Source: Candidatus Saccharimonadota bacterium (lineage in GTDB: Bacteria; Patescibacteriota; Saccharimonadia; Saccharimonadales; Saccharimonadaceae). From it: a stretch of DNA of 32,000 nt. How positions within the stretch are numbered: position 1 is the first letter of the stretch; each line of letters begins with the position of its first letter. The position numbers were made by a program, and so were the translations under genes. The notes under the pieces are model-generated. The model was not told the DNA's origin. It made no database searches and saw only the letters and a program-made list of their open reading frames with translations. Shown here piece by piece: positions 78 to 27,694 of the stretch. The stretch lies in the NCBI GenBank assembly GCA_023898645.1, contig CP060232.1, positions 390,001-422,000 on the forward strand, in the 5' to 3' direction.

Positions 78-680
78 ATGTCAAAAGGAATAATCTACTT
101 AATGTCCACCGCCGTATCTGGCCTGGTGAAGATTGGCAAAACTGGCACGGTCAATTATCCAGAACGAATGCGCTTCCTGGAGGCTAATGGATACTACAAC
201 GTTGCGGGCTTACGACGCTATTTCGCTATCGAGCTTGAAGATTATGACGATAAAGAAAGTCTACTGCACGAAATTTTTAGCAAACACCAAGTTGGTACCA
301 GCGAGCTTTTTGCGTTAGACCAAGACCTAGTACGTCAATTGTTGCTATCATTTGATGGTAAAGTTATCTATCCTGAAAAAATCAACAAGGAAAAAGAGTT
401 CGACGAAGTGGCGACCGCCCGCAAGCAAGGTGCGTTATTCAGCTTTTACCGTAAAGGTTTGCAAGACGGTGACGAAATCAACTTTATATCTGATAAATCT
501 ATTATCGCAACCGTCAGCGGAGAGCGAGAAGTTGAGTACGGCGGTCAAGTATGGAAGTTGTCACCACTAACATACAAGATTTTCGAGGATAAGGGGCAGC
601 TAAACAGTAGCGGCGCCTATCAGGGTGCAAACTATTGGCAATTCAATAATCACAAACTAAAAGATTTGCCTGATAAGTAG
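78..680 (+). CDS. GIY-YIG nuclease family protein, T5orf172/MUG113 type, with an extra C-terminal domain
   Basis: The N-terminus reads GIIYLM...GLVKIGKT...ERMRFLE...ESLLHEIFSKHQVGTSELFAL. This matches the T5orf172 pattern (IY..., KIGxT, R, E..lH..f, EwF/ELF). A Shine-Dalgarno GGAGGA lies upstream. Confidence 0.7.
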   Translation: MSKGIIYLMSTAVSGLVKIGKTGTVNYPERMRFLEANGYYNVAGLRRYFAIELEDYDDKESLLHEIFSKHQVGTSELFALDQDLVRQLLLSFDGKVIYPEKINKEKEFDEVATARKQGALFSFYRKGLQDGDEINFISDKSIIATVSGEREVEYGGQVWKLSPLTYKIFEDKGQLNSSGAYQGANYWQFNNHKLKDLPDK

Positions 681-1085: not shown

Positions 1086-1631
1086 ATGAAAATGACAGAC
1101 TTGCTACTTCACCCCGTACGAATCCGTATCCTCCAAGCTTTTTTAGGGGAGCGTGAGCTAACGACTGCTCAGCTTGCGGCAGAAATGGGTGATATTCCTC
1201 CGGGCAGGATTTATCGACATGTAACTTTGCTAGCCGATGCGGGAGTTTTGGAAGTTAAGTCCGAACGGCGAGTGCGTGGCGCAGTTGAGCGTTCATATGG
1301 CTTGGGGATCAAGACCAAACCTGATGTAGCAGAAATAAAAAAAATGACCCGTGATGAACATCTGCAGGCTTTTACGGCATATGTAACCGGACTGCTAGCA
1401 AGTTATGAACGGTATCTTGATAGTGACAAGCCGGATCTGGTACGTGATGGCGTTGGTTATTCTATGAATGCATTGTGGCTGAGTGATGACGAGTATGCTG
1501 ATTTCGTAAAAGATATCGCAGCCGTCGTAACGAAACGGACAAAAAATAAACCAACAGCAGAGCGAAAGCGTCGCCTGATAGCGAGCGCATTTATGCCACT
1601 GCTTAACAACAAGGAGGGATCGAATGACTGA
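1086..1631 (+). CDS. ArsR/PadR-like winged-helix transcriptional regulator
   Basis: MKMTDLLLHPVRIRILQAFLGERELTTAQLAAEMGDIPPGRIYRHVTLLADAGVLEV is a typical ArsR-family HTH. I chose the in-frame ATG at 1086 over the ORF-track start at 963, because the N-terminal 41 codons look noncoding and overlap the promoter. The stop overlaps the next gene by 8 nt. Confidence 0.75.
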   Translation: MKMTDLLLHPVRIRILQAFLGERELTTAQLAAEMGDIPPGRIYRHVTLLADAGVLEVKSERRVRGAVERSYGLGIKTKPDVAEIKKMTRDEHLQAFTAYVTGLLASYERYLDSDKPDLVRDGVGYSMNALWLSDDEYADFVKDIAAVVTKRTKNKPTAERKRRLIASAFMPLLNNKEGSND

Positions 1632-2544
1632 GCGTCAGATCGAATTTACGTCAGACAACTACAAATTAGCGGGTACTTTCGTGACACCGGATGAATCCAA
1701 GCCTCTACCAGCAGTGTTGATGCTACCGGGGTCGGGCCAGACGGACCGCGACGATAATGCCAAGAAGCTTGCCATAAATGTATTTCCGCAGGTGGCGGAG
1801 GCGATGAGCAGCATTGGCGTTGCTAGTTTACGATATGATAAGCGTGGCGTCGGTGAGAGCGAAGGTGATTATTGGCGCAGTGATTTAGATGATCGCATAG
1901 CCGATGCGGGCGCGGCGATCGAATGGCTAAAGGCTCAAGATGACGTAGACTCTGATAACGTATATGTTCTTGGCCATAGCGAGGGTGCGCTTGTAGCTAC
2001 AAGTCTTGCTGCGGGACGTGCGGCGGTTGCGGGTGCAATTCTGCTGGCCGGATCGGCAAAGACAGGCGAAGAGACGCTAATCTGGCAAGGCGAACAAATT
2101 GTTGGCAGTCTGACGGGATTTTCAAAATGGCTTGTTGACCATCTGCATATTGATGCTAAGAAAAAGCAGCAACAAGCCATTGATAAGATAAAGAAAAGCA
2201 CCAAAGACACGTATAAAGTTCAGTTCATACAGAGGATAAATGCCAAGTGGATGCGTGAATTGCTCGCTTACGAACCAGAACAAGATTTGGCGAAGATTAA
2301 TGTCCCAGTTCTTGCGATTACCGGTTCGAAGGATATACAGGTTGACCCTGCGGATCTTGAGCGTATGAAGCAGCTGGTCAAGGGTCCATTTGAGGCGCAC
2401 TGTGTGCCAGACGTAACGCACCTATTGCGCGCAGACGCAGGCGCTCCTGGTATCAAAACATACAAGGAGCAGGCGCGGCGGCCAGTTGACGAGCGCGTTA
2501 TAAATTACATAGAAAACTGGTTGAAGGATAAAATAAAACGGTAA
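1624..2544 (+). CDS. alpha/beta hydrolase (S33/dienelactone-hydrolase-like serine hydrolase)
   Basis: It has the nucleophile elbow GHSEGA and a length and layout typical of the alpha/beta fold, with a C-terminal ...DVTHLL histidine region. It is translationally coupled to the regulator through an ATGACTGA overlap. Confidence 0.8.
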   Translation: MTERQIEFTSDNYKLAGTFVTPDESKPLPAVLMLPGSGQTDRDDNAKKLAINVFPQVAEAMSSIGVASLRYDKRGVGESEGDYWRSDLDDRIADAGAAIEWLKAQDDVDSDNVYVLGHSEGALVATSLAAGRAAVAGAILLAGSAKTGEETLIWQGEQIVGSLTGFSKWLVDHLHIDAKKKQQQAIDKIKKSTKDTYKVQFIQRINAKWMRELLAYEPEQDLAKINVPVLAITGSKDIQVDPADLERMKQLVKGPFEAHCVPDVTHLLRADAGAPGIKTYKEQARRPVDERVINYIENWLKDKIKR

Positions 2545-2796: not shown

Positions 2797-3168
2797 ATGT
2801 CAGACACAGAGAAGTTCATCTGCAGCTTGATCGTAACCCAAGCACCGATGCTGCAAGACGTGATTGACTCCAAGAAATGGGGCGTCATTACACTCTCGGT
2901 CGCGACATTCAGTGCTTCGCTCGACGATGATTTATCTGTCGTGCCGACGTGCAAGTTGAGCGAATTACAACTTCGCAACATCAGAAACATCCAGCTCGAT
3001 GACAACGACCAACAGTTTTCATTCGAAGGCGACTATCGGTTTAGCTACGAGCATAACTCGCACAGCCAGTCGTATGTACGAACTGAAACAACTAGCTATC
3101 GAGTAATCGTACGCTGGTCTAGTCGGTTCGAGCAAGATCTAACTGCGTACCTTTTGCAACTCGATTAG
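2797..3168 (+). CDS. hypothetical protein (123 aa), monocistronic
   Basis: A strong Shine-Dalgarno AAGGAGGTGG lies 5-6 nt upstream of the ATG. An extended -10 box TGgTATTAT sits at 2744-2752, and the gene has its own terminator at 3186-3216. I recognised no motif. Confidence 0.6.
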   Translation: MSDTEKFICSLIVTQAPMLQDVIDSKKWGVITLSVATFSASLDDDLSVVPTCKLSELQLRNIRNIQLDDNDQQFSFEGDYRFSYEHNSHSQSYVRTETTSYRVIVRWSSRFEQDLTAYLLQLD

Positions 3169-3617: not shown

Positions 3618-4247
3618 ATGACAATCAAACCATATATAGCGGCGGTTGCCGCAGTCTCTTCGCTTGCGCTTTTTTTCGGCCAGACCGCTCATGCGCAGGC
3701 GCCTAACTTCATTGGTAGTCCGTCTAACTTTAATCCTGGCAATCAGTTGCCTGCGCCCGGTTCGAGAGTTCAGCCACGAGGCGGGTTTCCGCCGCAGCAG
3801 GTTCAATATCGAGTTAGGGTCAATGAAAGGATTCAGTACAGCGAAAGGCATAGCTGGACATATAGCGAACGTCGTACGGACGACACTCAGCGTCAGCACA
3901 GGGCGGCTAGGCCGGCGGCTCCTAGGTCTAGTAATTTGTATATAAATGGCCAGTGTACTTGGTACGCAAAAAAGCGTCGACCTGATTTGCCGAATGGGCT
4001 CGGAAATGCAAATACTTGGTATGCGCGGGCGGCAGCCAAAGGCTATAAAGTCGGTTCGTCTCCTCGTGTAGGTGCAATAGGGGCGACGTCACAAGGAGCA
4101 CTTGGACATGTCGTATATGTCGAGTCGGTCCATAGAAACGGTACGATTACTGTTTCTGAAATGAATTACAACGGAGGCGTTGGCAAGGTCCACACACGCA
4201 CCGTCGCGGCAACTCAGTTTAAGTATATCTACAGAAGCGTCGCCTAG
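3618..4247 (+). CDS. secreted CHAP-domain peptidoglycan hydrolase (amidase/endopeptidase)
   Basis: A signal peptide MTIKPYIAAVAAVSSLALFFGQTAHAQA is followed by a low-complexity P/Q/R linker. The CHAP domain carries catalytic Cys (NGQCTWYAKK) and His (GHVVYVESV) motifs. Shine-Dalgarno TAAGGAG lies upstream. Confidence 0.8.
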   Translation: MTIKPYIAAVAAVSSLALFFGQTAHAQAPNFIGSPSNFNPGNQLPAPGSRVQPRGGFPPQQVQYRVRVNERIQYSERHSWTYSERRTDDTQRQHRAARPAAPRSSNLYINGQCTWYAKKRRPDLPNGLGNANTWYARAAAKGYKVGSSPRVGAIGATSQGALGHVVYVESVHRNGTITVSEMNYNGGVGKVHTRTVAATQFKYIYRSVA

Positions 4248-6374: not shown

Positions 6375-6905
6375 TTATTTTTTCTCCGTAGTCTGCATAT
6401 TGCGCAAGTTACGATTGACGAGAAGCTGTGTTTTTAAGTGGGTTTCGAATTGCTCAGGGAAGGGTACGCCTCGTAGTTTGACGGGCTTGGTTGTTGATTG
6501 CAAACGAAGTGTAACTGTGCCATATTCGAACAAGTGACCGGCGAAAGTTTGACGCACTTCAGTCGTTTTTATGTCGCGTAGATCAATCTGTTTGTTAGAT
6601 CGCTTCATGAGACATTTTATAGAAATTTTATGAGATGACAACTTGTATTCCAGAGAGCGCCATGCGAAAAAAACAATGAATGATACGATGAAATTTAAAA
6701 TTACTCCAAGCAAGATTATGTCTATGACATACGTTCCTATGTGAAGTCCTAATTGTAGACGTTCACCTCGTCTCGTTGGTCCTGTCAAAATTACGAATGC
6801 ACTAAAAAACAATATGAAAATTCGGAACACTAAAAGGCGAGCAAATATATATCCGGCGCTTTGCTTGATCGTACGATCTTGTTCTGAGAGGTAGCTGGCA
6901 TACAT
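6375..6905 (-). CDS. bPH2 (YdbS/YdbT-like bacterial pleckstrin-homology) membrane protein, paralog 1
   Basis: It has two TM helices, then a C-terminal segment ...IDLRDIKTTEVRQTFAGHLFEYGTVTLRL...KPVKLRGVPFPEQF typical of the DUF304/bPH2 family. It is clearly paralogous to the adjacent gene. Confidence 0.65.
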   Translation of the reverse strand: MYASYLSEQDRTIKQSAGYIFARLLVFRIFILFFSAFVILTGPTRRGERLQLGLHIGTYVIDIILLGVILNFIVSFIVFFAWRSLEYKLSSHKISIKCLMKRSNKQIDLRDIKTTEVRQTFAGHLFEYGTVTLRLQSTTKPVKLRGVPFPEQFETHLKTQLLVNRNLRNMQTTEKK

Positions 6906-6965: not shown

Positions 6966-7508
6966 TTACTTGCTAGTCTTAGCAATATGAAGCTTTCGGT
7001 TTGCTAGCATTCTCGTTTCTAGTTGTGTTTTGAATTGTTTGGGGTGAGTAATACCTTTTAGGCTTACTGGTTTTTCACCATGTTGTAATGTAACTTTTAT
7101 GGTTGCGTAATTAAAGTAATTTCCTAAGATATTGCGGTTAATCTTGCAGCCCTCGATGTCTGCGAGATTAATGTATTTATCTCTTGATGCCGTAAACCCT
7201 CGCCTAATGATAAGGCTATGGATGGATATTCGATATTCAACTGATTGCCATGCTGCAAAAATTAACAAGAATAGTATGAAATTACTTGGTATGCAGACAA
7301 GTATTATTTTAATGTCTAACGTGCTTATGTGAAAACCCGGAATCGTAGGTATTGACGATGCTTCGTCGCCAATAAATGCTAAGAAAGAATAAAAAGTCAT
7401 GAAAACAACTTCCGCTATAAGGAGTCGGGCAAACATGAATCCGGCGCTTTGATTAGCTATGTAATCGATATCGATTAGCGCATCAGTCCTCATATATATA
7501 TTGTACAT
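6966..7508 (-). CDS. bPH2 (YdbS/YdbT-like) membrane protein, paralog 2
   Basis: The architecture matches 6375-6905. Shared motifs are QSAG[YF]xFARLL, AWxSxEY, I[DN]LxDI, KPVxLxG and PxQFxTxL. Confidence 0.65.
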   Translation of the reverse strand: MYNIYMRTDALIDIDYIANQSAGFMFARLLIAEVVFMTFYSFLAFIGDEASSIPTIPGFHISTLDIKIILVCIPSNFILFLLIFAAWQSVEYRISIHSLIIRRGFTASRDKYINLADIEGCKINRNILGNYFNYATIKVTLQHGEKPVSLKGITHPKQFKTQLETRMLANRKLHIAKTSK

Positions 7509-7589: not shown

Positions 7590-9653
7590 GTGGAGAGACC
7601 AACTGCGCCCGACAGCGACAAGATACCGAACGGCTGGAATGAACAGGCGGCGAATGACTATGACCTGTATAGGCCGCGGGATTACTCTGAATTTCACTAC
7701 GATACCATTACTGCCGCCGACGTAAAATTTATCGTCAATGACGGGCTACAGCGAGTCAAAGACTATTACGAACGCGTCATCGAGACCGACGAGCTGACAT
7801 GGAATACCGTAATGGCTCCGCTTGATGACGCCGCTGATCAGATGGCGCATGTACACGGAAGGGCTTTGATACTTGGTGAAGTGCACCCGGATCAAGAAGT
7901 CCGAGATGTCGTAGCGGAGCTCGAGACAGACTTTATGCTGGAGGCGTCTGCCGTATGGTATCGAAAAGATTTATTGTCAAAAATTAAGGCATATTCAAAG
8001 ACTCGTGAAGCAAAGAAGTTAAAGGGCGAAAAGGCTAGGTGTCTAGAAGCGACACTCTATATGTATAGTCAGCTCGGTTTTAACCTGCCCCCGAAAAAGC
8101 AGGCTCGATTGAGGGAGATTGATGAAAAGTTGACCGTATATGCGGCTGAATTTGCGTTGAACTTAAAAAACGATAATACGGTCGTGATGTTGACTCAGGA
8201 AGAGCTGGCAGGTATGCCGGAGCGCTATATAAATGACCTGGAGCGAACTGATGACGGGGAATATGTGGTAACTATGAAGTATCCACATGTTGATCCTATT
8301 TTCATGCAGGCCGAAAATCGCGAAACGAGGCGAAAAATAAGTGAGGCATTTCATTCTGTTGGCGTGGAAGGAAATCGACAAATCTTAGAGGAATCGCTTT
8401 CACTGCGTCATGAATATGCGAAGATTTTAGGATATTCCTCGTGGATGCACTACAGTACGGATACTCATATGGTAGAAACGCCAGAGAAATTGATTGAGTT
8501 TTATAACGAACTATATGATCCGCTCATGGAGCGTGCCGCGCCAGAGTATGCAATCATGCAGGAGATGCTGGAAATTGACGGCCACGAGGGTCCGCTCATG
8601 ATTTATGACCGTGATTATTACGTGGCGAGATTGCAAGAATACAAGTATAAGATTGACCACGGAAAAATAAACGAATATTTGCCAGTCGAAGCCTGCTTAG
8701 ATGGGCTTCACGAGCTGTCGGGGGAACTGTTTGGCATAAAGATTAAGCAGGTTGATTTGCCGGTTTGGCACGAAGACGTAATGGCATATTCGGTTGAGGA
8801 CGCCAAGACGGGTGAGCTCAAAGCTACATTTTATTTGGACTTGTTTTCAAGGCCGGGTAAGTACACGCACGCAGCGACTATACCACTGCAACATGGTCGT
8901 AGGCTTGCGGATGGTACTTACCAAAAGCCTAGTGCAGTTATAGTTGCGAACTATTCACGACCTTGCTTTACGTACGAAGATTTAATTACACAGGCACATG
9001 AGGATGGGCATTTGTGGCAAATGCTTTTGACCAAGGCTGAGCTTATGGACTTTTCTGGCTGTAGTGTTGAGCATGACATTTGCGAAGCGCCGTCGCAAAT
9101 GATGGAGAACTTTATAAAGGAACCGGAAATACTGCGGCGCATTATGAAACATTATCAAACAGGTGAGCAGCTTGATGATGAATCTATAAAAGCTTTGGTG
9201 GAGTCGCAGCAGATTTATGATCTGTTTGAGTATTTGCGGCGGATGCATCTGGGTGACATAGACCTGACGCTGCATGGCGATTCGGAACAGTGGGATATCG
9301 CACAGGTTAATCACAATAGCTCATCGATTGCTATGTTTTTACAGCCAGAAGGTACTTTTTTACCAGGAAAGTTTGGACATATCATGGGCGGCTATGAGGG
9401 CGGTTACCATACGTATGCGTATTCGAAAGTAAAGGCCGATGATCACTATAGTGTGTTTGAGCAAAGCTCATCGGCTTATCGTGAAATCGGTATGAGGTAC
9501 CGGCGAATATTTCAAGAGCGCGGTGGTACGATTTCGTCTGCCGAAAACGAGTTGGAATTTTTAGGTCGTGAGCCAAATCACGAAGCATTTCTGCGGCGTA
9601 TGGGTATCGTAGCTACAAAAGCTACGCTACAAACGCCCGAACCAGGCTCTTAA
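7590..9653 (+). CDS. M3-family zinc metallopeptidase (oligopeptidase / thimet-Dcp-like)
   Basis: The HEXXH zinc motif (AHEDGHLW) sits at the position expected for M3, and the size of about 690 aa fits. The start is GTG at 7590, with AAGGAG 5 nt upstream. Confidence 0.85.
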   Translation: MERPTAPDSDKIPNGWNEQAANDYDLYRPRDYSEFHYDTITAADVKFIVNDGLQRVKDYYERVIETDELTWNTVMAPLDDAADQMAHVHGRALILGEVHPDQEVRDVVAELETDFMLEASAVWYRKDLLSKIKAYSKTREAKKLKGEKARCLEATLYMYSQLGFNLPPKKQARLREIDEKLTVYAAEFALNLKNDNTVVMLTQEELAGMPERYINDLERTDDGEYVVTMKYPHVDPIFMQAENRETRRKISEAFHSVGVEGNRQILEESLSLRHEYAKILGYSSWMHYSTDTHMVETPEKLIEFYNELYDPLMERAAPEYAIMQEMLEIDGHEGPLMIYDRDYYVARLQEYKYKIDHGKINEYLPVEACLDGLHELSGELFGIKIKQVDLPVWHEDVMAYSVEDAKTGELKATFYLDLFSRPGKYTHAATIPLQHGRRLADGTYQKPSAVIVANYSRPCFTYEDLITQAHEDGHLWQMLLTKAELMDFSGCSVEHDICEAPSQMMENFIKEPEILRRIMKHYQTGEQLDDESIKALVESQQIYDLFEYLRRMHLGDIDLTLHGDSEQWDIAQVNHNSSSIAMFLQPEGTFLPGKFGHIMGGYEGGYHTYAYSKVKADDHYSVFEQSSSAYREIGMRYRRIFQERGGTISSAENELEFLGREPNHEAFLRRMGIVATKATLQTPEPGS

Positions 9654-10045
9654 GCTGCGTCGTCGTTTTTAGGATTGGCGTGTCGAGGTGATTGATTGAG
9701 ATTGTCACGAATAAGTGTGTGAATCTTGCGGCAGGTGTTTTCTCGTTTCTCCGCTTCCGCCCTTGAGTGGGTCGGCTCTATGCCTTTGCATAGAAGTCGT
9801 ATGACAGGTTTACCGTCTCGGTCATTTTCAATTTGTTGCCGTAGTGCGCATTTGCCCATTTCACCTAACATGTTACAGCCATAAGCAATTTTAGGAGCGT
9901 CGTCATGTTGCGGTCTTTCTTCGACCGAAGTAGGGTCGTCTTCATCAGAGCAGTCGGTTTGACTATAGGTACTACGTTCATGATCTGATATGGGTGTCCT
10001 AGATTCGTACGAGACGTAATATATAGGTTCCCTATGTATAGCCAT
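9650..10045 (-). CDS. hypothetical acidic, Cys-containing protein (131 aa)
   Basis: It has an ATG start with AAGGA about 9 nt upstream and fills an otherwise empty 400-bp gap. Its stop shares the TTAA of a CTTAAG palindrome with the convergent peptidase gene. I recognised no motif. Confidence 0.45.
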   Translation of the reverse strand: MAIHREPIYYVSYESRTPISDHERSTYSQTDCSDEDDPTSVEERPQHDDAPKIAYGCNMLGEMGKCALRQQIENDRDGKPVIRLLCKGIEPTHSRAEAEKRENTCRKIHTLIRDNLNQSPRHANPKNDDAA

Positions 10046-10208
10046 GTTGAAGGTTCCTTTGTAGCTCCATTATACATAATGTTTACGGTTTTAAATTTTA
10101 CTTAGTATATTTTCTTTGGTTTAAGCTTACGGTGTACATAAAATGCCTGATTATGCCGAAACATAAATCAAACGAAACATAAAAGCAACCTTTTTTTGCG
10201 TATAACGC

Positions 10209-10243: not shown

Positions 10244-11329
10244 ATGAAGAAACATATCCTTGGATTCACATTAGTCGAAATTATATTAGCAATATCCGTT
10301 TTAGGAATTTTGGGCGCTATTGCTGCCGTAAACTTATCTGGCTTTGAGACATCATCAAGCAACAAAGTTCGTTCCACGGAGGTCAAGCAATGGGCTTCTA
10401 CCTTTGATTTGTACAAGAGTCGATTTGGGGTTTGGCCAGTGTTGCCTAAAAGTGACGGCACTTCAACTGTCTGTCTGGGCGACTTTACGACAGTTGGAGG
10501 CAAGTGCGGTAACTTAGCTACGCAGTCGTATAGTGGTGCAGTAGACAATAGCTTGCTAAAGGCTGTAGAGACGGTCGGCAATCAACCTAAAGACACTGCA
10601 CCAGCGGTTGGCGATAAGATTGCCGGGCCGGTTGCATATATGACACAGACGACCGATCAAAATACTGGCATCGCTACTGTAACGATTAAGTACGTAGGTT
10701 TCTTTAAAGGCAATACTTGCCCAGAAGGCTTTGATCCATACAGCACGAACATACCCCAGGAACTTAATGCAGTTTCATGTTCACTCCATGATGGTGGCAG
10801 TAGCTTTGCGTATGATTCTGGAAACCCACCAGTGCCACCTACGTCTACAACCGCGACACCAGTACCGACTCCAGTCGCGACTCCAATTGCAACTCCAGTC
10901 GCAACACCAACTCCTACTCCAAGACCAACTCCTACTCCAAGACCAGCTGCTACTCCTATTGCGTTACCGATCCCCGTGCCAAGTACTTCAACAACCGCTC
11001 AGCAGAAATGCCCTAACAATACAAATACTTTCACAAAAGGTTTCAGCGTCGGATTCTGCACAGGCCTCTTCCTGACTGGCGTGGCAACGGCAACGACTCT
11101 AGCGGTCGGCGGTACCCTTGCAGTAGCTGCAACGTTAGTGGGTGGTCCTCTTGCAGGTGCCGCAGTGATTGGAGCTACTTTGGCTGTCGCAGCAGTTGGT
11201 GTCGTAGCGGGTGTGGCACAAAGTGTGGTTGCTGGTGTGGTTACCGGTACGATTGCCGTAGTAGTTGAAGCGACAGTCAATGTAGTGACATCGATATTCA
11301 AGGGCATCGGCCATCTGTTCGGCTTCTAA
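10244..11329 (+). CDS. type IV pilin-like (prepilin N-terminal cleavage/methylation domain) protein with a Pro/Thr linker and a hydrophobic Gly/Ala/Val C-terminal tail
   Basis: MKKHILG|FTLVEIILAISVLGILGAIAAVNL is a class III signal with Glu at +5. Two Cys pairs lie in the globular part. I preferred the ATG at 10244 (alternative 10238) over the track's TTG at 10196. Confidence 0.75.
   Translation: MKKHILGFTLVEIILAISVLGILGAIAAVNLSGFETSSSNKVRSTEVKQWASTFDLYKSRFGVWPVLPKSDGTSTVCLGDFTTVGGKCGNLATQSYSGAVDNSLLKAVETVGNQPKDTAPAVGDKIAGPVAYMTQTTDQNTGIATVTIKYVGFFKGNTCPEGFDPYSTNIPQELNAVSCSLHDGGSSFAYDSGNPPVPPTSTTATPVPTPVATPIATPVATPTPTPRPTPTPRPAATPIALPIPVPSTSTTAQQKCPNNTNTFTKGFSVGFCTGLFLTGVATATTLAVGGTLAVAATLVGGPLAGAAVIGATLAVAAVGVVAGVAQSVVAGVVTGTIAVVVEATVNVVTSIFKGIGHLFGF
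10909..10944 (+). repeat. perfect 18-nt tandem duplication (aactcctactccaagacc x2) inside the pilin Pro/Thr linker
   Basis: I read it directly: 10909-10926 is identical to 10927-10944. It encodes (T)PTPRP twice. Related 24-nt-period copies of actccagtcgc lie just upstream. Confidence 0.9.
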
Positions 11330-11370
11330 ATACGTACCTACTACCACTTGATCTTACCTTCGAGTAATAA

Positions 11371-14310: not shown

Positions 14311-14384
14311 GGCGCGTTGGCGGAGCGGTTACGCAGAGGTCTGCAAAACCTCGTAGATGGGTTCGACTCCCATACGTGCCTCCA
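14311..14384 (+). tRNA. tRNA-Cys (anticodon GCA), CCA encoded
   Basis: I folded it by hand. The acceptor is GGCGCGT/ACGTGCC (one G-U pair), the anticodon stem-loop is GAGGT-CTGCAAA-ACCTC, the T arm is ATGGG-TTCGACT-CCCAT, and the 3' end is TCCA. An extended -10 box TGcTATAAT lies at 14277-14285. Confidence 0.9.
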
Positions 14385-15153: not shown

Positions 15154-15240
15154 GCGCGGGTGGTGGAATCGGTAGACACGAGAGACTTAAAATCTCTTGG
15201 CCGCAAGGCCGTGCGGGTTCAAGTCCCGCCCCGCGCACCA
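15154..15240 (+). tRNA. tRNA-Leu (anticodon UAA), type II long variable arm, CCA encoded
   Basis: The acceptor is GCGCGGG/CCCGCGC, the anticodon stem-loop is AGAGA-CTTAAAA-TCTCT, the long variable arm is GGCCGCAAGGCC, the T arm is GCGGG-TTCAAGT-CCCGC, and the 3' end is ACCA. Confidence 0.92.
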
Positions 15241-23757: not shown

Positions 23758-24002
23758 GTAACTGTGATTCTCTTCTATGTACTAATAATTTCAGATCGAC
23801 CGATTGCTACTACCAGAGTTCCATAGGAATCACTATTAGACGCATGCTTCTGAACAACTTTATTAAAGCATACTTAGAAAGGAAATACTAGTAAATAATT
23901 AATGATCTAAGCAATCTTCGGGGGTTGTCGTAGTCAGTGGTGCCGGGCTAGATTAGCGACAGTGTCTCCTTGATTGGCATAACCGAAGTAAAAGATCATC
24001 GG

Positions 24003-27000
24003 CTAGAAGTAGGTGGTGATGACAACACAGCCATCTGCGCCTTTGCCGCCCGCACCAGAGTTGTATCCGTTGTCAGACGCCCCACCGCCACCGCCACCTG
24101 CGTTGTGGTTGGTTGCGTCACCTCCGTTGCCGCCGTTAGTCGCGGTCTTATACGCCCCACCGCCACCGCCAATCCCTGGCAGGCCAGGTATGACCGGATA
24201 GTAAGAGGTGTTGGTAGTAGCATCCATTGTCGAGGTGCCGTTGCCTGGGGAGACGAAAGTGCCAGACAGGCTGCGTACAGCGAAGATCGACGCTGCACCG
24301 CCTCCAGCCGCCGATGATGTAGAGCTCGCCGCCGCCCCGCCACCGCCGCCGCCGCCACCGCCAACGTAGGTCGCGTTCGAGCCTATGCTCCCGTTGCTAT
24401 TGTTACCCGCTCCACCGGCACCGCCTGCAAACTGGGTGTTGACGGCACCTCCGCCACCTGCGACAGTTGTTCCAGTACTACCACCCAGCCCGCCGTAACC
24501 CGGATTGGCGTTAAAGTTGAGCGTGGATATATACGAAATTTCGAGGTTGCTAACGCGAGTTGAGTGATAACTTCTTCCACCGACCATTCCGTCCGTGTCA
24601 TCCGTAGTGACGGGCAGACCACCGTAGGCTCCGGCGGGGACACTGACGAACATCGCGGTGTCGGGCACATCCGACGCAGGAACAGTGACTTCTTGCCACC
24701 CCCCGCCACCGCCACCACCGCCGCCGGTACGGTTTGACGTGGTGGCTCGCCTCGCACCAGAACCGCCACCACCGCCTGGACCGCATAATGTGAACTTCAC
24801 TGAAACAGCGCCAGACGGCTTCGTCCACGTCTGGAGTTTAAATACGTTTCCGTAGGGCCGCACGGTTGCAGGAGCTATATCAGCGGTGCTTCTGGCAAAA
24901 GTAAACGTGGTGGCTGTTGGAATCGAGGTGATAGTCACCGAGGTAACTAGGTTTAACTCGATTGCAGAATCAATGCCGTTAATCCAAACCTTGTCGCCAA
25001 CCTGATAGCCGTGTGCCGTGAGCGTAGTAAGAGTCACTACGTTTGAGGACACTTGCTTATCGGTGACGTAGTTCGCGCCCAGCGGGGTGAATACATCGAC
25101 CTGGGCTTGCTTAGCAATCCCAGCGGGGGTGCCCGTAATCGTAGGACTCACCAACGTCTTGTTCGATAGTGACTGTGTGCCGGTGGTGGTTACTACATCT
25201 ACGCCGTTGGCCTGTACAGTGCCAGTACCCTTCGTCTTCAGGTTTAAACTAACGTTATCGTCACCAACCCCCGTCGAGGAAGTAGCAGTAATATATGGAG
25301 CCTGTCCTAGCGCAGCAGATGCTCCGATTAAATAATTGGGGCCGAGAGGATAGATTGTCATTCCCGGCGTACCAGCTGTGTTCGACAAACCAATCGGACT
25401 GCTGCCCTTTGATTTTAGACCCAGCGAAACATCGGTTGCACCAAATAGGCTATTCGCAAAAAGATTGGTCGCACTGGCCGTTCGATTAATCTGCAAATGG
25501 GCGAGAGACGCTCCGTTTGACTCTAAGTATATGGCCGTGCCCCCATCCTCTGCTGCAATCTGCCGAACCTTCGGAGTGGTGAGCGTCTTATTAGTAAGGG
25601 TCTGAGCGCCACTTGTTGTAACTACCTCAACACCGTTAGCCTGAACAACTCCGGTACCTTTGGGGAGTAGATTGAGATTGTGATTTGCATCTTGACCGTC
25701 TGCTTTGATTGTTGGTGTTTGGCCGGTGGTTACATAGAACATCAGACTGCCCGAACCTTTGGGGTTGATCTGCAAGTCGATATTAGAATCTGCTCCGTCA
25801 ACTAGCAGATATGGATTAAGTCCCGTTCCCCTATTGGCGAGGCGTAAGTAGTTGACCGCACTAGGATAAGTGGCAAGAGACAGTAGCGTGTTGCCACTGG
25901 TATCAAGAATTGAGGTTCCGATTTTTGGACTAACGAGAGTTTTGTTGGTAAAGGTTTGAGAATCACTGATAGTTGCCGCATCGACACTATTAATTTTTAC
26001 AGTACCAGTGCCTTTGGTAGTTATATTGAGGTTTTTATTGGTATCATCCCCAATCGCAGCAATGGTTGGTGTACCGCCAGTTGTAGCATATACCGATAGT
26101 TTGCCAGTTGCAGATACGACACCGTCGGAAGAGACGTTATTTACCGTTCCGGTAGGAGTTGCTGATTGCCAAGTTGCACCGTCATTGTAGACCGGCAATG
26201 AAGCGCCGTTGCCACAAAATCGGCTTAATTCGTATATAGCATATTGGCCATAGTTTGTTGGCTTTCGCATCCAGAGCTCTGCGTCTGACGTCCATCCTCC
26301 GGAGATCACTTTGAACGCATCTGCGGGGAAGTTGTACTGAGGCGCCATAGAGTCGGTGCAAGATAGTATCTTTACTCCAACTGCAGGGTTAGTGCCGGAA
26401 TGTGAGCGCAAGAATGCTAGAATTGTCGCCGAAGCACCGTACGCGCCGTATCCAGCAACGACTTGCAGTACAACCTGAACATCGCGATATACTCCGCTAC
26501 CCGTTGAAAATGTAGCAATCTTTGTCCATGTATTCGGTCCATCTTCTGGGCCTGTAGAGCCGTATACTGTAGTAACCACAAGTCGAGACGCGTCTGGGAG
26601 GGACGAGGCGGGAATATTAGTAATGGTGTTGTTTGACCCAGAAATTGTCTTATTTGTGAGGGTTTGTGTGCCCGAAACAGTCAGGACGTCTACTCCATTG
26701 GCCCTTACAGTACCTGTGCCTTGCGTCGTGAGGTTTAGGTTTGTATTTGGCGCCGTAGAAGTAGCACTAATAGCCATTTCGGTCTGTCCGGTCTCGCCGT
26801 ACAGACGCAGAGGGCCCGAGCCCTTTGGAATAAGCGTTACACCAATATTGGCATCGGCGCCAACGGTTTGAATCAACGGATACGCTCCAGTATATCTATT
26901 TGTTATCTGCAAATAATTGACGGCGTTCGCAGCAGGAGACAGCGACAGGATTGTGTTATTATTTGTATCTTTGATTGTACTTACTTTGGGATCGGTCAAC

Positions 27001-27350
27001 GTCTTATTCGTCAACGTCGCCGTCGCCGCGTTCTTCGTCGCATCACTGGTGTTGTCGACCTGATCAAGACCGACATCGGTCTTGGTGAGGGAGACAGCAC
27101 CTGTTTTGGCGGCAACGCTCGTGACAGGGGCGGTGGCATTGAGCTTGGTTTGAACAGCTGTATCGAGCAATGTTTCGGTGATAGATCCGTCGGCAATAGA
27201 AATAGAGTCGATGGCATTAGGTGCAATAGCGTCGCTCGTGACACTGTCTGTTTTTAGCTTGCCGTCGGGGGCGTGAATCTGCTCCAAGAAGTTATTGAGG
27301 ATACTACCCCAATTGCCCGTGTCGCCGCCCGGTGTTGGGAGCCGAGCCAT
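24003..27350 (-). CDS. 1115-aa phage-tail-fibre-like protein: fibre-type N-terminus, TLTNKT-delimited repeat modules, inserted globular domain, C-terminal glycine-rich domain
   Basis: This is a single uninterrupted ORF. The N-terminus reads MARLPTPGGDTGNWGSILNNFL...KTGAVSLTKTDVGLDQVDNTSDATK. The motif [TS][LF][TS]NKT[LI] occurs five times. The C-terminal part reads WTKPSGAVSVKFTLCGPGGGGGSG, followed by several poly-Gly runs. No signal peptide is present. The CDS call is firm and the function is inferred. Confidence 0.85.
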   Translation of the reverse strand: MARLPTPGGDTGNWGSILNNFLEQIHAPDGKLKTDSVTSDAIAPNAIDSISIADGSITETLLDTAVQTKLNATAPVTSVAAKTGAVSLTKTDVGLDQVDNTSDATKNAATATLTNKTLTDPKVSTIKDTNNNTILSLSPAANAVNYLQITNRYTGAYPLIQTVGADANIGVTLIPKGSGPLRLYGETGQTEMAISATSTAPNTNLNLTTQGTGTVRANGVDVLTVSGTQTLTNKTISGSNNTITNIPASSLPDASRLVVTTVYGSTGPEDGPNTWTKIATFSTGSGVYRDVQVVLQVVAGYGAYGASATILAFLRSHSGTNPAVGVKILSCTDSMAPQYNFPADAFKVISGGWTSDAELWMRKPTNYGQYAIYELSRFCGNGASLPVYNDGATWQSATPTGTVNNVSSDGVVSATGKLSVYATTGGTPTIAAIGDDTNKNLNITTKGTGTVKINSVDAATISDSQTFTNKTLVSPKIGTSILDTSGNTLLSLATYPSAVNYLRLANRGTGLNPYLLVDGADSNIDLQINPKGSGSLMFYVTTGQTPTIKADGQDANHNLNLLPKGTGVVQANGVEVVTTSGAQTLTNKTLTTPKVRQIAAEDGGTAIYLESNGASLAHLQINRTASATNLFANSLFGATDVSLGLKSKGSSPIGLSNTAGTPGMTIYPLGPNYLIGASAALGQAPYITATSSTGVGDDNVSLNLKTKGTGTVQANGVDVVTTTGTQSLSNKTLVSPTITGTPAGIAKQAQVDVFTPLGANYVTDKQVSSNVVTLTTLTAHGYQVGDKVWINGIDSAIELNLVTSVTITSIPTATTFTFARSTADIAPATVRPYGNVFKLQTWTKPSGAVSVKFTLCGPGGGGGSGARRATTSNRTGGGGGGGGGWQEVTVPASDVPDTAMFVSVPAGAYGGLPVTTDDTDGMVGGRSYHSTRVSNLEISYISTLNFNANPGYGGLGGSTGTTVAGGGGAVNTQFAGGAGGAGNNSNGSIGSNATYVGGGGGGGGGAAASSTSSAAGGGAASIFAVRSLSGTFVSPGNGTSTMDATTNTSYYPVIPGLPGIGGGGGAYKTATNGGNGGDATNHNAGGGGGGASDNGYNSGAGGKGADGCVVITTYF
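25146..26099 (-). repeat. fibre repeat half-module plus modules B and C (aa 418-735) of the large protein
   Basis: The half-module spans aa 418-472. Module B spans aa 466-590 (125 aa). Module C is degenerate and longer, spanning aa 584-735. All end in xTxxxSxTFTNKTL / TLTNKTL / SLSNKTL. Confidence 0.75.
26643..27017 (-). repeat. fibre repeat module A (aa 112-236, 125 aa) of the large protein
   Basis: It is bounded by TLTNKTL and TLTNKTI. It aligns without gaps to module B, sharing AVNYLxxxNR, GADxNIxxxxxPKGSG, NLNL and KGTGxVxANGV. Confidence 0.8.
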
Positions 27351-27617: not shown

Positions 27618-27694
27618 TGGTGGAGCATATCGGATTCGAACCGATGACCTCTTCCATGCCATGGAAGCGCGCTAGCCAACTGCGCCAATGCCCC
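27618..27694 (-). tRNA. tRNA-Ala (anticodon GGC), CCA encoded
   Basis: I folded the reverse complement. The acceptor is GGGGCAT/ATGCTCC and carries the G3:U70 alanine identity pair. The anticodon stem-loop is CTTCC-ATGGCAT-GGAAG, the T arm is ATCGG-TTCGAAT-CCGAT, and the 3' end is ACCA. Confidence 0.9.

Follow-up and report, generated by a model that had tools for sequence, protein, structure and literature searches.

We analysed a stretch of 32,000 nucleotides from a Candidatus Saccharimonadota bacterium (contig CP060232.1 of assembly GCA_023898645.1, positions 390,001 to 422,000; this whole stretch is called the window below) and describe here an open reading frame (ORF) located at 10244–11329 of its plus strand. 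The ORF comprises 361 codons and a stop, and its translation is a bimodular type IV pilin of 361 amino acids (aa). From the N- to the C-terminus the protein consists of a leader, a pilin head, a spacer rich in Pro and Thr, a third Cys pair and a tail dominated by Gly, Ala, Val and Thr. The extent of the gene is supported by an identical protein in three other assemblies and by the full-length orthologs P0001–P0003. Unless stated otherwise, the features of the gene given below lie on the plus strand.

The pilin half and the integrity of the fusion

The protein begins with the class III signal MKKHILG|FTLVE. Its leader (MKKHILG, seven residues, 10244–10264) is short and basic and ends in Gly; from the sequence and the family profiles, the prepilin peptidase is predicted to cut after this G7. 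The mature N-terminus FTLVE, with F at +1 and E at +5, opens a long α1 helix (residues 8–60, 10265–10423) that includes the hydrophobic α1N part. The original prediction, made from the sequence alone, had recognised a prepilin signal at this place, and both of the relevant profiles agreed with it, as Pfam N_methyl (PF07963) reached 22.2 bits (cut-off 21.2) and TIGR02532 17.8 bits (cut-off 16.3). Of 15 homologs, at least 90% keep E12, which corresponds to E+5. Residues 3–65 match solved pilins and pseudopilins in PDB (geopilin, PilA, MshA and GspG). An AlphaFold2 (AF2) model built from 15 sequences has a helix at residues 10–60, with a predicted local distance difference test (pLDDT) score of 74–81 over residues 11–30, and the Hessa sum of the α1 region is about −1 to 0 (all the Hessa values given here are simple sums). 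By the criteria of sequence, the assignment as a genuine type IV pilin is well supported.

We consider the ATG at 10244 to be the real start, because every ortholog begins with MKKNI... and because in the ortholog locus L002 an in-frame stop lies six codons 5' of the ortholog's ATG. A 363-aa version, started from an ATG two codons upstream in another assembly, and a 377-aa version starting from a TTG are variants of the gene callers. A weak sigma-70-like promoter match (9 of 12 positions; 10082–10111) was tentatively located in the AT-rich intergenic region upstream; the count of such sites upstream of the gene was no higher than in shuffled sequences.

The globular head occupies residues 61–190 (10424–10813), as delimited from the alignment, the AF2 model and stand-alone homologs, and ends in an F-x-Y motif. 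A globular domain with two Cys pairs had been proposed, and in the alignment both pairs (C77/C88 and C159/C179) turned out to be invariant across the 15 homologs. The 15-sequence AF2 model placed the strands of a β-sheet at residues 125–191 with a pLDDT of about 70–77; the value for the whole model was 51.8, and a run on a four-sequence alignment reached 38. From the 15-sequence model we took no more than the secondary structure and the core of the head. As AF2 confidence was low and a Foldseek search of the AF2 model against PDB gave no match at E ≤ 0.001, we make no claim based on the fold.

With a head-only profile, we found eleven proteins of 199–242 aa (most of them 199–210 aa) with 35–42% identity, and two further stand-alone pilins of 194 and 204 aa were obtained from metagenome contigs. 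All these stand-alone relatives (P0005–P0015, L011 and L013) stop at the F-x-Y(-x-P) motif, where the spacer starts in the window protein. As they end at the graft point, the spacer and the tail together represent a clean C-terminal graft on a complete pilin. The stand-alone pilins of ∼205 aa, which belong to the candidate phyla radiation (CPR), resemble the window protein in their homologous head, two Cys pairs and F-x-Y end, but have neither spacer nor tail and are paired with a secreted, C-terminally anchored protein of ∼530 aa that is absent from the window. This convergent neighbour (∼520–540 aa, 62% identity) follows the stand-alone pilins in every case, at 10618–12192 of L005, 10622–12181 of L007 and 1902–3518 of L013, each time on the minus strand, and has a signal peptide, a C-terminal transmembrane (TM) helix and a Pro-rich cytoplasmic tail. 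It is possibly a functional partner of the head family that is missing where the tail is present.

A scan of reference genomes from 185,579 species gave a single match, L004, a metagenome-assembled genome of Candidatus Saccharibacteria; the additions from the metagenome and reference-genome scans together were limited to this one RCC1 variant and plain pilins. L004 encodes a head that is 50–53% identical to the window head, behind it a Pro/Thr spacer of about 32–35 aa and then RCC1 repeats (Pfam RCC1, E 5.7e-19), inside which the contig stops. From the tail-bearing fusion and this RCC1-bearing relative we concluded that one CPR pilin head carries interchangeable cargoes. We rejected L004 as a positional ortholog in which the cargo had been swapped at one locus, since its flanking genes differ and it has no synteny with the tail-bearing loci.

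The gene had been described as an orphan, which was borne out by the larger region: neither the 32-kb window nor the additional flank of about 10 kb from the same strain (about 42 kb in total) contains a pilB, pilC or pilD gene. A search for the remainder of the genome and for its pilus machinery yielded contigs of at most 31 kb. No member of the head family adjoins pilus genes in the loci examined. Orphan status is therefore a trait of the head family, and there is nothing special about the window gene in this respect.

We observed the same in-frame protein in three independent assemblies (sequencing runs), the loci of which are fully syntenic with the window. This is equivalent to a resequencing of the locus, and the assembly frameshift that the original prediction had named as a reservation was not found. 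Runs SRR14234121, SRR12358676 and SRR28385529 contain this lineage. The orthologs P0001–P0003 (354–362 aa, 50–66% identity), which come from other samples, also carry head, spacer, Cys loop and tail in a single ORF, and not as split genes; they share with the window a neighbourhood of genes for a flavin mononucleotide (FMN) reductase, a 190-aa protein, a ∼315-aa protein, a PNPOx protein and a Ser hydrolase. Mismatches between the orthologous tails are more frequent at third codon positions (0.42–0.68) than at the others (0.12–0.35), and the ratio of non-synonymous to synonymous substitution rates (dN/dS) of the tail is about 0.2–0.3, with dS near saturation. These two observations indicate that the tail is translated in the plus frame and is under purifying selection. 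Two minus-strand ORFs of 102 and 70 aa that cover the tail (10999–11347) are shadow ORFs of a coding strand rich in GCN, GTN and GGN codons; they were rejected as genes, as the substitutions peak at the third codon positions of the plus frame. That the gene is vertically inherited, in an ultrasmall bacterium of the Saccharibacteria type (CPR), is well supported.

The spacer and the hydrophobic module

The Pro/Thr spacer (10814–11008) contains 20 Pro and 20 Ser/Thr residues and is predicted to be disordered. A long Pro/Thr linker had been predicted and is real, but its length, measured from the end of the head to C256, is 65 aa instead of the 57 aa first given. The core of the spacer is encoded by imperfect DNA tandem repeats with periods of 6, 12, 18, 24 and 36 (10852–10962). 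Although it is repeat-encoded, its length is nearly constant across four lineages that are 50–66% identical (64 aa in each of the three orthologs), and the spacer of the RCC1 relative is about half as long. Since the lengths of 65, 64, 64 and 64 aa have been maintained in slippage-prone repeats and the RCC1 relative has half of it, the length of the spacer appears to be selected, and for the tail cargo specifically. Such constancy is unexplained if the spacer is merely a flexible linker. In the extended state, as in polyproline-II-like linkers, ∼64 residues measure at most roughly 20 nm. A Kelch protein, P0004, was discarded as a homolog, as its match was a spurious one to the Pro/Thr linker.

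The spacer is followed by a portable module of ∼105 residues that consists of a Cys loop and the tail. The loop (11009–11059) is closed by C256 and C272 in a C-x15-C arrangement of the disulfide type, and its first half is polar and Asn-rich, while the second half is hydrophobic. All four pilin fusions and P0016, a protein that carries the module without a pilin (see below), have C256, C272 and N261 without variation, and the loop is the first element of the module. This third Cys pair had escaped the original prediction, which was otherwise right in describing a hydrophobic tail rich in Gly, Ala, Val and Thr. The tail is 87 aa long (20 Val, 18 Ala, 14 Gly, 11 Thr and 8 Leu, among others), and just three of its residues, E343, K353 and H357, are ionisable.

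Three segments of 22–27 residues each, with Kyte–Doolittle means of 1.5–2.3, make up the tail. Segment 1 (residues 273–299, 11060–11140), a low-confidence helix in AF2, has the invariant residues G274, L275, T278, G289 and A293. An invariant GGP hinge (residues 300–302, 11141–11149), at which the helix breaks in both of the AF2 models, leads to segment 2 (residues 303–324, 11150–11215), which was delimited from Hessa sums, the alignment and AF2 and has the highest hydrophobicity. A polar break, A-Q-S with the invariant S327, and segment 3 (residues 328–350) together occupy 11216–11293. According to the alignment, this part holds a conserved S-x3-G-x3-G motif (residues 327–335), which is kept in three of the four pilin tails. 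The C-terminal end, SIFKGIGHLFGF (11294–11326), is the sole site of basic residues in the module in four of the five family members.

The invariant positions of the tail are mostly Gly, Ala, Ser or Thr, and small invariant residues are what is expected for tight helix packing. Small residues recur with a periodicity near 3.8 and with none near 2; 66 of 2000 shuffles reached the observed power, and the support from this periodicity is modest. As originally proposed, the tail is rich in small-xxx-small patterns, but not beyond its composition, as 34% of the shuffles reached the count of [GAS]xxx[GAS]xxx[GAS] in the window tail. Strict glycine-zipper patterns number one or two per tail, which about 25–100% of the shuffles attained in the four pilin tails. 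Ladders of [GAST] at i, i+4, i+8 and i+12 are enriched in four of the five family members (2–5% of shuffles). Because the strict motifs remain at the level expected from composition and the longer [GAST] ladders alone are enriched, 'small-residue helix-packing module' fits the tail better than 'glycine zipper', and the latter label, which is backed neither by enrichment of the strict motif nor by a match to a Gly-zipper family, was dropped. The tail is 70, 53 and 45% identical to those of the three orthologs and the head 68, 59 and 56%. As the conservation of the tail matches that of the head, this is not what would be expected from a mere greasy anchor.

Database searches with the tail gave no match in Pfam, NCBIfam, PHROGs or PADLOC, and thus none to the Gly-zipper, bacteriocin, holin or toxin families therein; C-terminal sorting families of the LPXTG, PEP-CTERM or GlyGly-CTERM type were also unmatched in NCBIfam and Pfam. 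Phage tape-measure proteins gave a weak, non-significant PHROG match in their hydrophobic part (E 0.049). No match was obtained in PDB at E ≤ 10, and none in viral contigs. An exhaustive hidden Markov model search of 1.84 billion representative proteins recovered one ortholog representative and one outsider, P0016 (E 6e-6), and when a wider profile was run against 5.8 billion proteins in a word-indexed search, nothing was added to P0001–P0003 and P0016. The family of the module accordingly consists of four pilin lineages and P0016.

Three assignments of the tail were considered and rejected. For a glycine-zipper toxin or bacteriocin, we found no excess of the motif, no family match and no adjacent immunity gene. 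A known C-terminal sorting signal was discarded in the absence of a signature match, and the tail is unlike such signals in having three segments over 87 residues with at most two basic residues. It is also not an ordinary polytopic anchor of the organism, as its composition and flanks are unlike those of the native TM helices of the window. With no match to an anchor or sorting family and this unusual composition, the reservation in the original prediction that the tail might belong to an ordinary anchor family did not materialise.

A search of the tail on other carriers had been suggested, and the profile search provided one case, P0016, in which it occurs without a pilin. P0016 is a metagenomic protein of 162 aa, in which an N-terminal segment with four Cys precedes the C-x15-C loop and the tail. 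Its N-terminus, with a basic n-region, a hydrophobic core and ...SAA|DY, apparently resembles a Sec signal peptide. The tail of P0016 is 42–49% identical to those of P0002 and P0003, and the positions that it has in common with the pilin tails are, in order, C, N, C, G-L, T, G, A, G-G-P, A, G, T, V, G, S, A, V, S and F. Hence the loop, the GL pair, the GGP hinge, the invariant Ser and equal segment lengths are shared with the window tail, whereas the pilin and the spacer are replaced by the apparent Sec signal and the small four-Cys segment. As the module exists without a pilin in this protein, it is a domain in its own right that is not tied to pilus biology. The gene of P0016 (L009, 401–889, plus strand) adjoins a gene for a secreted vWA-domain protein (1119–1697, plus strand; PF00092, E 1.3e-7). 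Among the tip proteins of pili, vWA domains are typical adhesin modules. P0016 and the stand-alone pilin P0005 come from the same two metagenomes. Together these data define a portable membrane module, made of a C-x15-C loop and a three-helix unit rich in Gly, Ala, Val and Thr, the generality of which is limited by the very small size of the family.

Likeness to known systems and the placement of the tail

Modular pilins have been described as a group of more than 1,200 proteins with 264 architectures, CPR members included, the cargo of which is considered to be exposed at the tip, or on the shaft where the linker is flexible (PMC8179133). In Streptococcus sanguinis, for example, PilB is a pilin joined to a vWA domain and PilC a pilin joined to a lectin (Raynaud et al. 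2021, PMC8179133). With a complete pilin, a linker and an extra C-terminal module, the window protein has this architecture. It shares with modular pilins, which occur in monoderms and CPR phyla, the class III signal, the small pilin module, the linker and the C-terminal graft. However, modular pilins bear soluble and recognisable cargoes (adhesins, lectins and peptidases) on short linkers, whereas the window protein bears an uncharged hydrophobic cargo of three segments on a spacer of 64–65 aa. The published census would have missed the module, because the latter has no InterPro or Pfam signature.

Type IV pili are well conserved in the Saccharibacteria group (literature), and saccharibacterial PilX1 and PilX2 are modular pilins (PMC11623550). 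PilX2 of Nanosynbacter lyticus TM7x, a pilin with a seven-bladed RCC1 β-propeller, is the candidate host-binding tip pilin of this organism (PMC11623550). It is similar to the window protein in phylum and design, and L004, with a head related to that of the window, a Pro/Thr spacer and RCC1 repeats, has the PilX2 architecture of a pilin that carries an RCC1 propeller. On the other hand, PilX2 has a propeller and belongs to a pilus locus, while the window protein has a hydrophobic tail and belongs to an orphan family; the likeness noted here is one of architecture. The statement in the original prediction that this architecture had not been described was consequently too broad, given both sets of published modular pilins; the design is known, and what is new is the hydrophobic cargo module without a database signature.

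Because polymerisation requires that a type IV pilin be extracted from the membrane, one with a second, three-segment hydrophobic module poses a topological puzzle. With 87 residues that are almost free of charge, the tail cannot remain soluble and will enter the nearest bilayer once it has been exported by Sec. The cargo must therefore sit in a hydrophobic environment. We tentatively favour the reading, with a probability of roughly 0.4, that the tail lies within the membrane of the producer itself and serves to tether the pilin to it. This membrane is favoured because it is where Sec export takes the tail by default, and because the segments have bilayer-spanning lengths with fixed breaks between them (GGP and Ser). 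The producer's own membrane is also more compatible than a self-toxic pore-former with the lack of an immunity or export partner beside the gene. A cytoplasmic C-terminus is suggested by the confinement of basic residues to the last ∼12 residues in four of the five members. The conserved length of the spacer suggests a tether or leash, as it fits a connection between two fixed structures, the membrane and a filament base that crosses the wall.

The events proposed under this tethering model would be as follows. The Sec pathway would insert the prepilin with its N-terminal helix in the membrane and with the head, the spacer and the Cys loop outside. The three tail segments would next re-enter the cytoplasmic membrane of the producer and pack closely into a bundle of helices with a predicted topology of out–in, in–out and out–in, which would leave the weakly basic C-terminus in the cytoplasm. 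Following cleavage of the leader, the head would dock in the base of a type IV filament and the bundle would remain in the bilayer, the spacer of fixed length (extending to about 20 nm or less) acting as a leash across the wall zone. The protein may thus serve as a basal, anchoring or length-limiting pilin subunit. No membrane-tethered type IV pilin was found in the literature searched, and a tethered subunit would accordingly be a basal, anchoring or length-setting type without precedent there for type IV filaments.

Besides this lack of precedent, several observations weigh against the tethered pilin. The insertion energies are marginal: segment 2, at +0.3 to +0.9 kcal/mol, is close to the threshold of translocon insertion, and the sums for segments 1 and 3 are +2 to +5 kcal/mol. 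Both AF2 runs gave three helices in the tail with low confidence (pLDDT about 40). When we compared the tail with 33 predicted TM segments from the membrane proteins of the window, Leu, Ile, Phe, Met and Trp together made up 18% of the tail and 47% of the native segments (21–68% per segment), and Gly, Ala, Ser and Thr 52% and 28%, respectively. The tail helices are without the Lys/Arg flanks that most of the native TM segments have, and the tail of P0001 has zero charged residues. The pilus machinery was not seen in the 42 kb covered. Furthermore, the same head and the same type of spacer bear a soluble RCC1 propeller in L004, and by analogy with PilX2 the position of the cargo may be one of display outside the cell.

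The main alternative, in line with the original prediction of a tail that acts on the membrane of another cell, is one that we regard as doubtful at present: the tail would be a displayed cargo, which the growing pilus pulls out of the membrane and which then buries itself in host lipid, either the cytoplasmic membrane or a mycolic-acid outer layer. The tail could act there as a hydrophobic grappling hook or as a pore- or fusion-like insertion element, held off the fibre by the spacer. This is consistent with the view that modular pilins display their cargo, as the tip-pilin candidate PilX2 would do with RCC1, and with the features that set the tail apart from native TM anchors, i.e. the missing positive-inside flanks and the marginal insertion energies. 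It is also in line with a tail as conserved as the globular head, and with the presence of the module behind an apparent Sec signal, beside a gene of the secreted vWA adhesin type. The composition of the tail resembles that of viral class I fusion peptides. A wastewater Saccharibacterium has been described that attacks Gordonia, which is coated with mycolic acids (literature).

Possible physicochemical analogues of a displayed tail, next to the non-significant tape-measure match, are toxins in which a hydrophobic domain held on the surface or on a filament acts on the membrane of a neighbour. Caulobacter CdzC and CdzD are held on the surface and contain about 75% Gly, Ala, Val and Ile (PMC5380434), and the ionophores among CdiA-CT domains are delivered by a filament (PMC11630599). 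The window tail has a composition of this G/A/V type but no detected sequence similarity to these toxins, no TM immunity gene and no type I secretion system or CdiB partner; it has three helices against the five of the compared toxins, and strict GxxxGxxxG is not enriched in it. We found no immunity-like or export genes beside the pilin gene in the window, in L003, in L014–L016 or in the other ortholog loci, nor a chaperone in any of them. In the window, 90 nt separate the stop of the pilin gene from the convergent FMN reductase gene, and the 131-aa protein encoded upstream is hydrophilic; L003 and L014–L016 are alike in this respect.

Other points also argue against display. The 87 uncharged residues would be unshielded in water, and the Sec route reaches the producer's own membrane first. 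The strict glycine zipper is not enriched and toxin and bacteriocin families are unmatched, as described above. A fixed spacer length is not obviously needed for display, and the spacer of the RCC1 relative is half as long. A family of four lineages and P0016 is too small for a general epibiont strategy. The most specific form of this alternative, in which a CPR epibiont uses a pilin, a glycosylatable stalk of ∼20 nm and pilus extension to plant a lipid-inserting three-helix anchor, pore or conduit into the host envelope, is a shade more doubtful still. A displayed tail would be directly relevant to the physical contact of Saccharibacteria and other CPR epibionts with their hosts; a tail that inserted into the host would amount to a device for membrane insertion delivered by a pilus, which is undescribed as a mode of host engagement for type IV filaments.

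It is unlikely that the tail self-associates outside the cell in an amyloid-like or Cdz-like manner, bundling pili or making the surface sticky for surfaces, flocs and foams. Its richness in Gly, Ala, Val and Thr, with 40% β-branched residues, its composition near that of the aggregating CdzC/D and the lack of topogenic charges would suit an aggregator. The periodicity near 3.8 with no period-2 signal, three segments of bilayer length with invariant breaks and the helices of both AF2 runs, of low confidence as they are, argue against it.

Equally improbable, in our estimate, is a protein that never enters a filament and uses the class III signal for anchoring or export, whether as an envelope protein with an anchor at each end or as a small membrane channel or scaffold with a pilin-like ectodomain. 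The gene and its relatives are all away from pilus genes, the module occurs without a pilin in P0016, and membrane-resident pilin-like proteins such as archaeal FlaF/FlaG are known. However, the Gly at the end of the leader is conserved as in assembling pilins, as are E+5 and the long α1 helix, an extended spacer of 64 aa has no obvious use between two anchors of one membrane, and the RCC1-bearing relative looks like a display pilin. Finally, although low-complexity, repeat-encoded DNA like that of the spacer is where assemblers and polymerases slip, a frameshift artefact that fused a pilin gene to a separate hydrophobic gene, or a tail that is not translated, is hardly conceivable and was rejected, in view of the in-frame identity of three independent runs, the single ORFs of four lineages and the codon-position pattern with a tail dN/dS below 1.

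Neighbouring genes and other features of the window

In two of the ortholog loci, a gene for a polytopic membrane protein of ∼544 aa (58% identity between the two) lies convergently and directly after the tail-bearing pilin gene, at 3102–4736 of L001 and 2231–3694 of L002, both on the minus strand. Neither the window nor L003 has this gene, and no match to the protein was found in Pfam, NCBIfam or PDB; a role as a glycosyltransferase of the spacer is unsupported by the same three databases. We also rejected the idea of a single conserved downstream partner of ∼530 aa, as this neighbour in L001 and L002 is unrelated to that in L005 and L013, and the window has neither of them.

Upstream of the pilin gene and on the opposite strand, an acidic, hydrophilic protein of 129–131 aa is encoded in the window (9650–10045, minus strand), in L002 (634–1023, minus strand), in L003 (723–1112, minus strand) and in L014/L015, which are loci of the same strain as the window. 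No family match was found for this protein, and its conservation is deduced from position and length. In L001, the upstream gene codes instead for a 354-aa HODM_asu-like protein.

The gene content of the window (LemA, HtpX, LigA, an ABC transporter and a CHAP hydrolase, among others) is unremarkable for a small-genome bacterium. A tRNA and Rfam scan located tRNA-Cys-GCA (14311–14384, plus strand), tRNA-Leu-TAA (15154–15240, plus strand) and tRNA-Ala-GGC (27618–27694, minus strand), and no Rfam family in the window besides these three. A protein with a T5orf172/MUG113 (GIY-YIG-like) domain, which is often found in mobile or phage-derived contexts, is encoded at the edge of the window (78–680, plus strand). 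Tandem paralogous genes at 6375–6905 and 6966–7508 (both minus strand) code for membrane proteins with a bPH_2 domain and two N-terminal TM helices each. The secreted CHAP protein (3618–4247, plus strand; PF05257, E 3.6e-19) has a Pro/Gln-rich N-terminal region and is a candidate peptidoglycan hydrolase, possibly relevant to the attack of an epibiont on host walls. A 1115-aa protein encoded at 24003–27350 (minus strand) contains many 'T(L/F)TNKT(L/I)' repeats and a C-terminal Gly_rich_2 domain (PF21722, E 2.5e-13). Its gene coincides with the peak of GC content in the window (0.597 at 24001–25000), and the protein may be a fibre-like surface protein or phage-tail-like.

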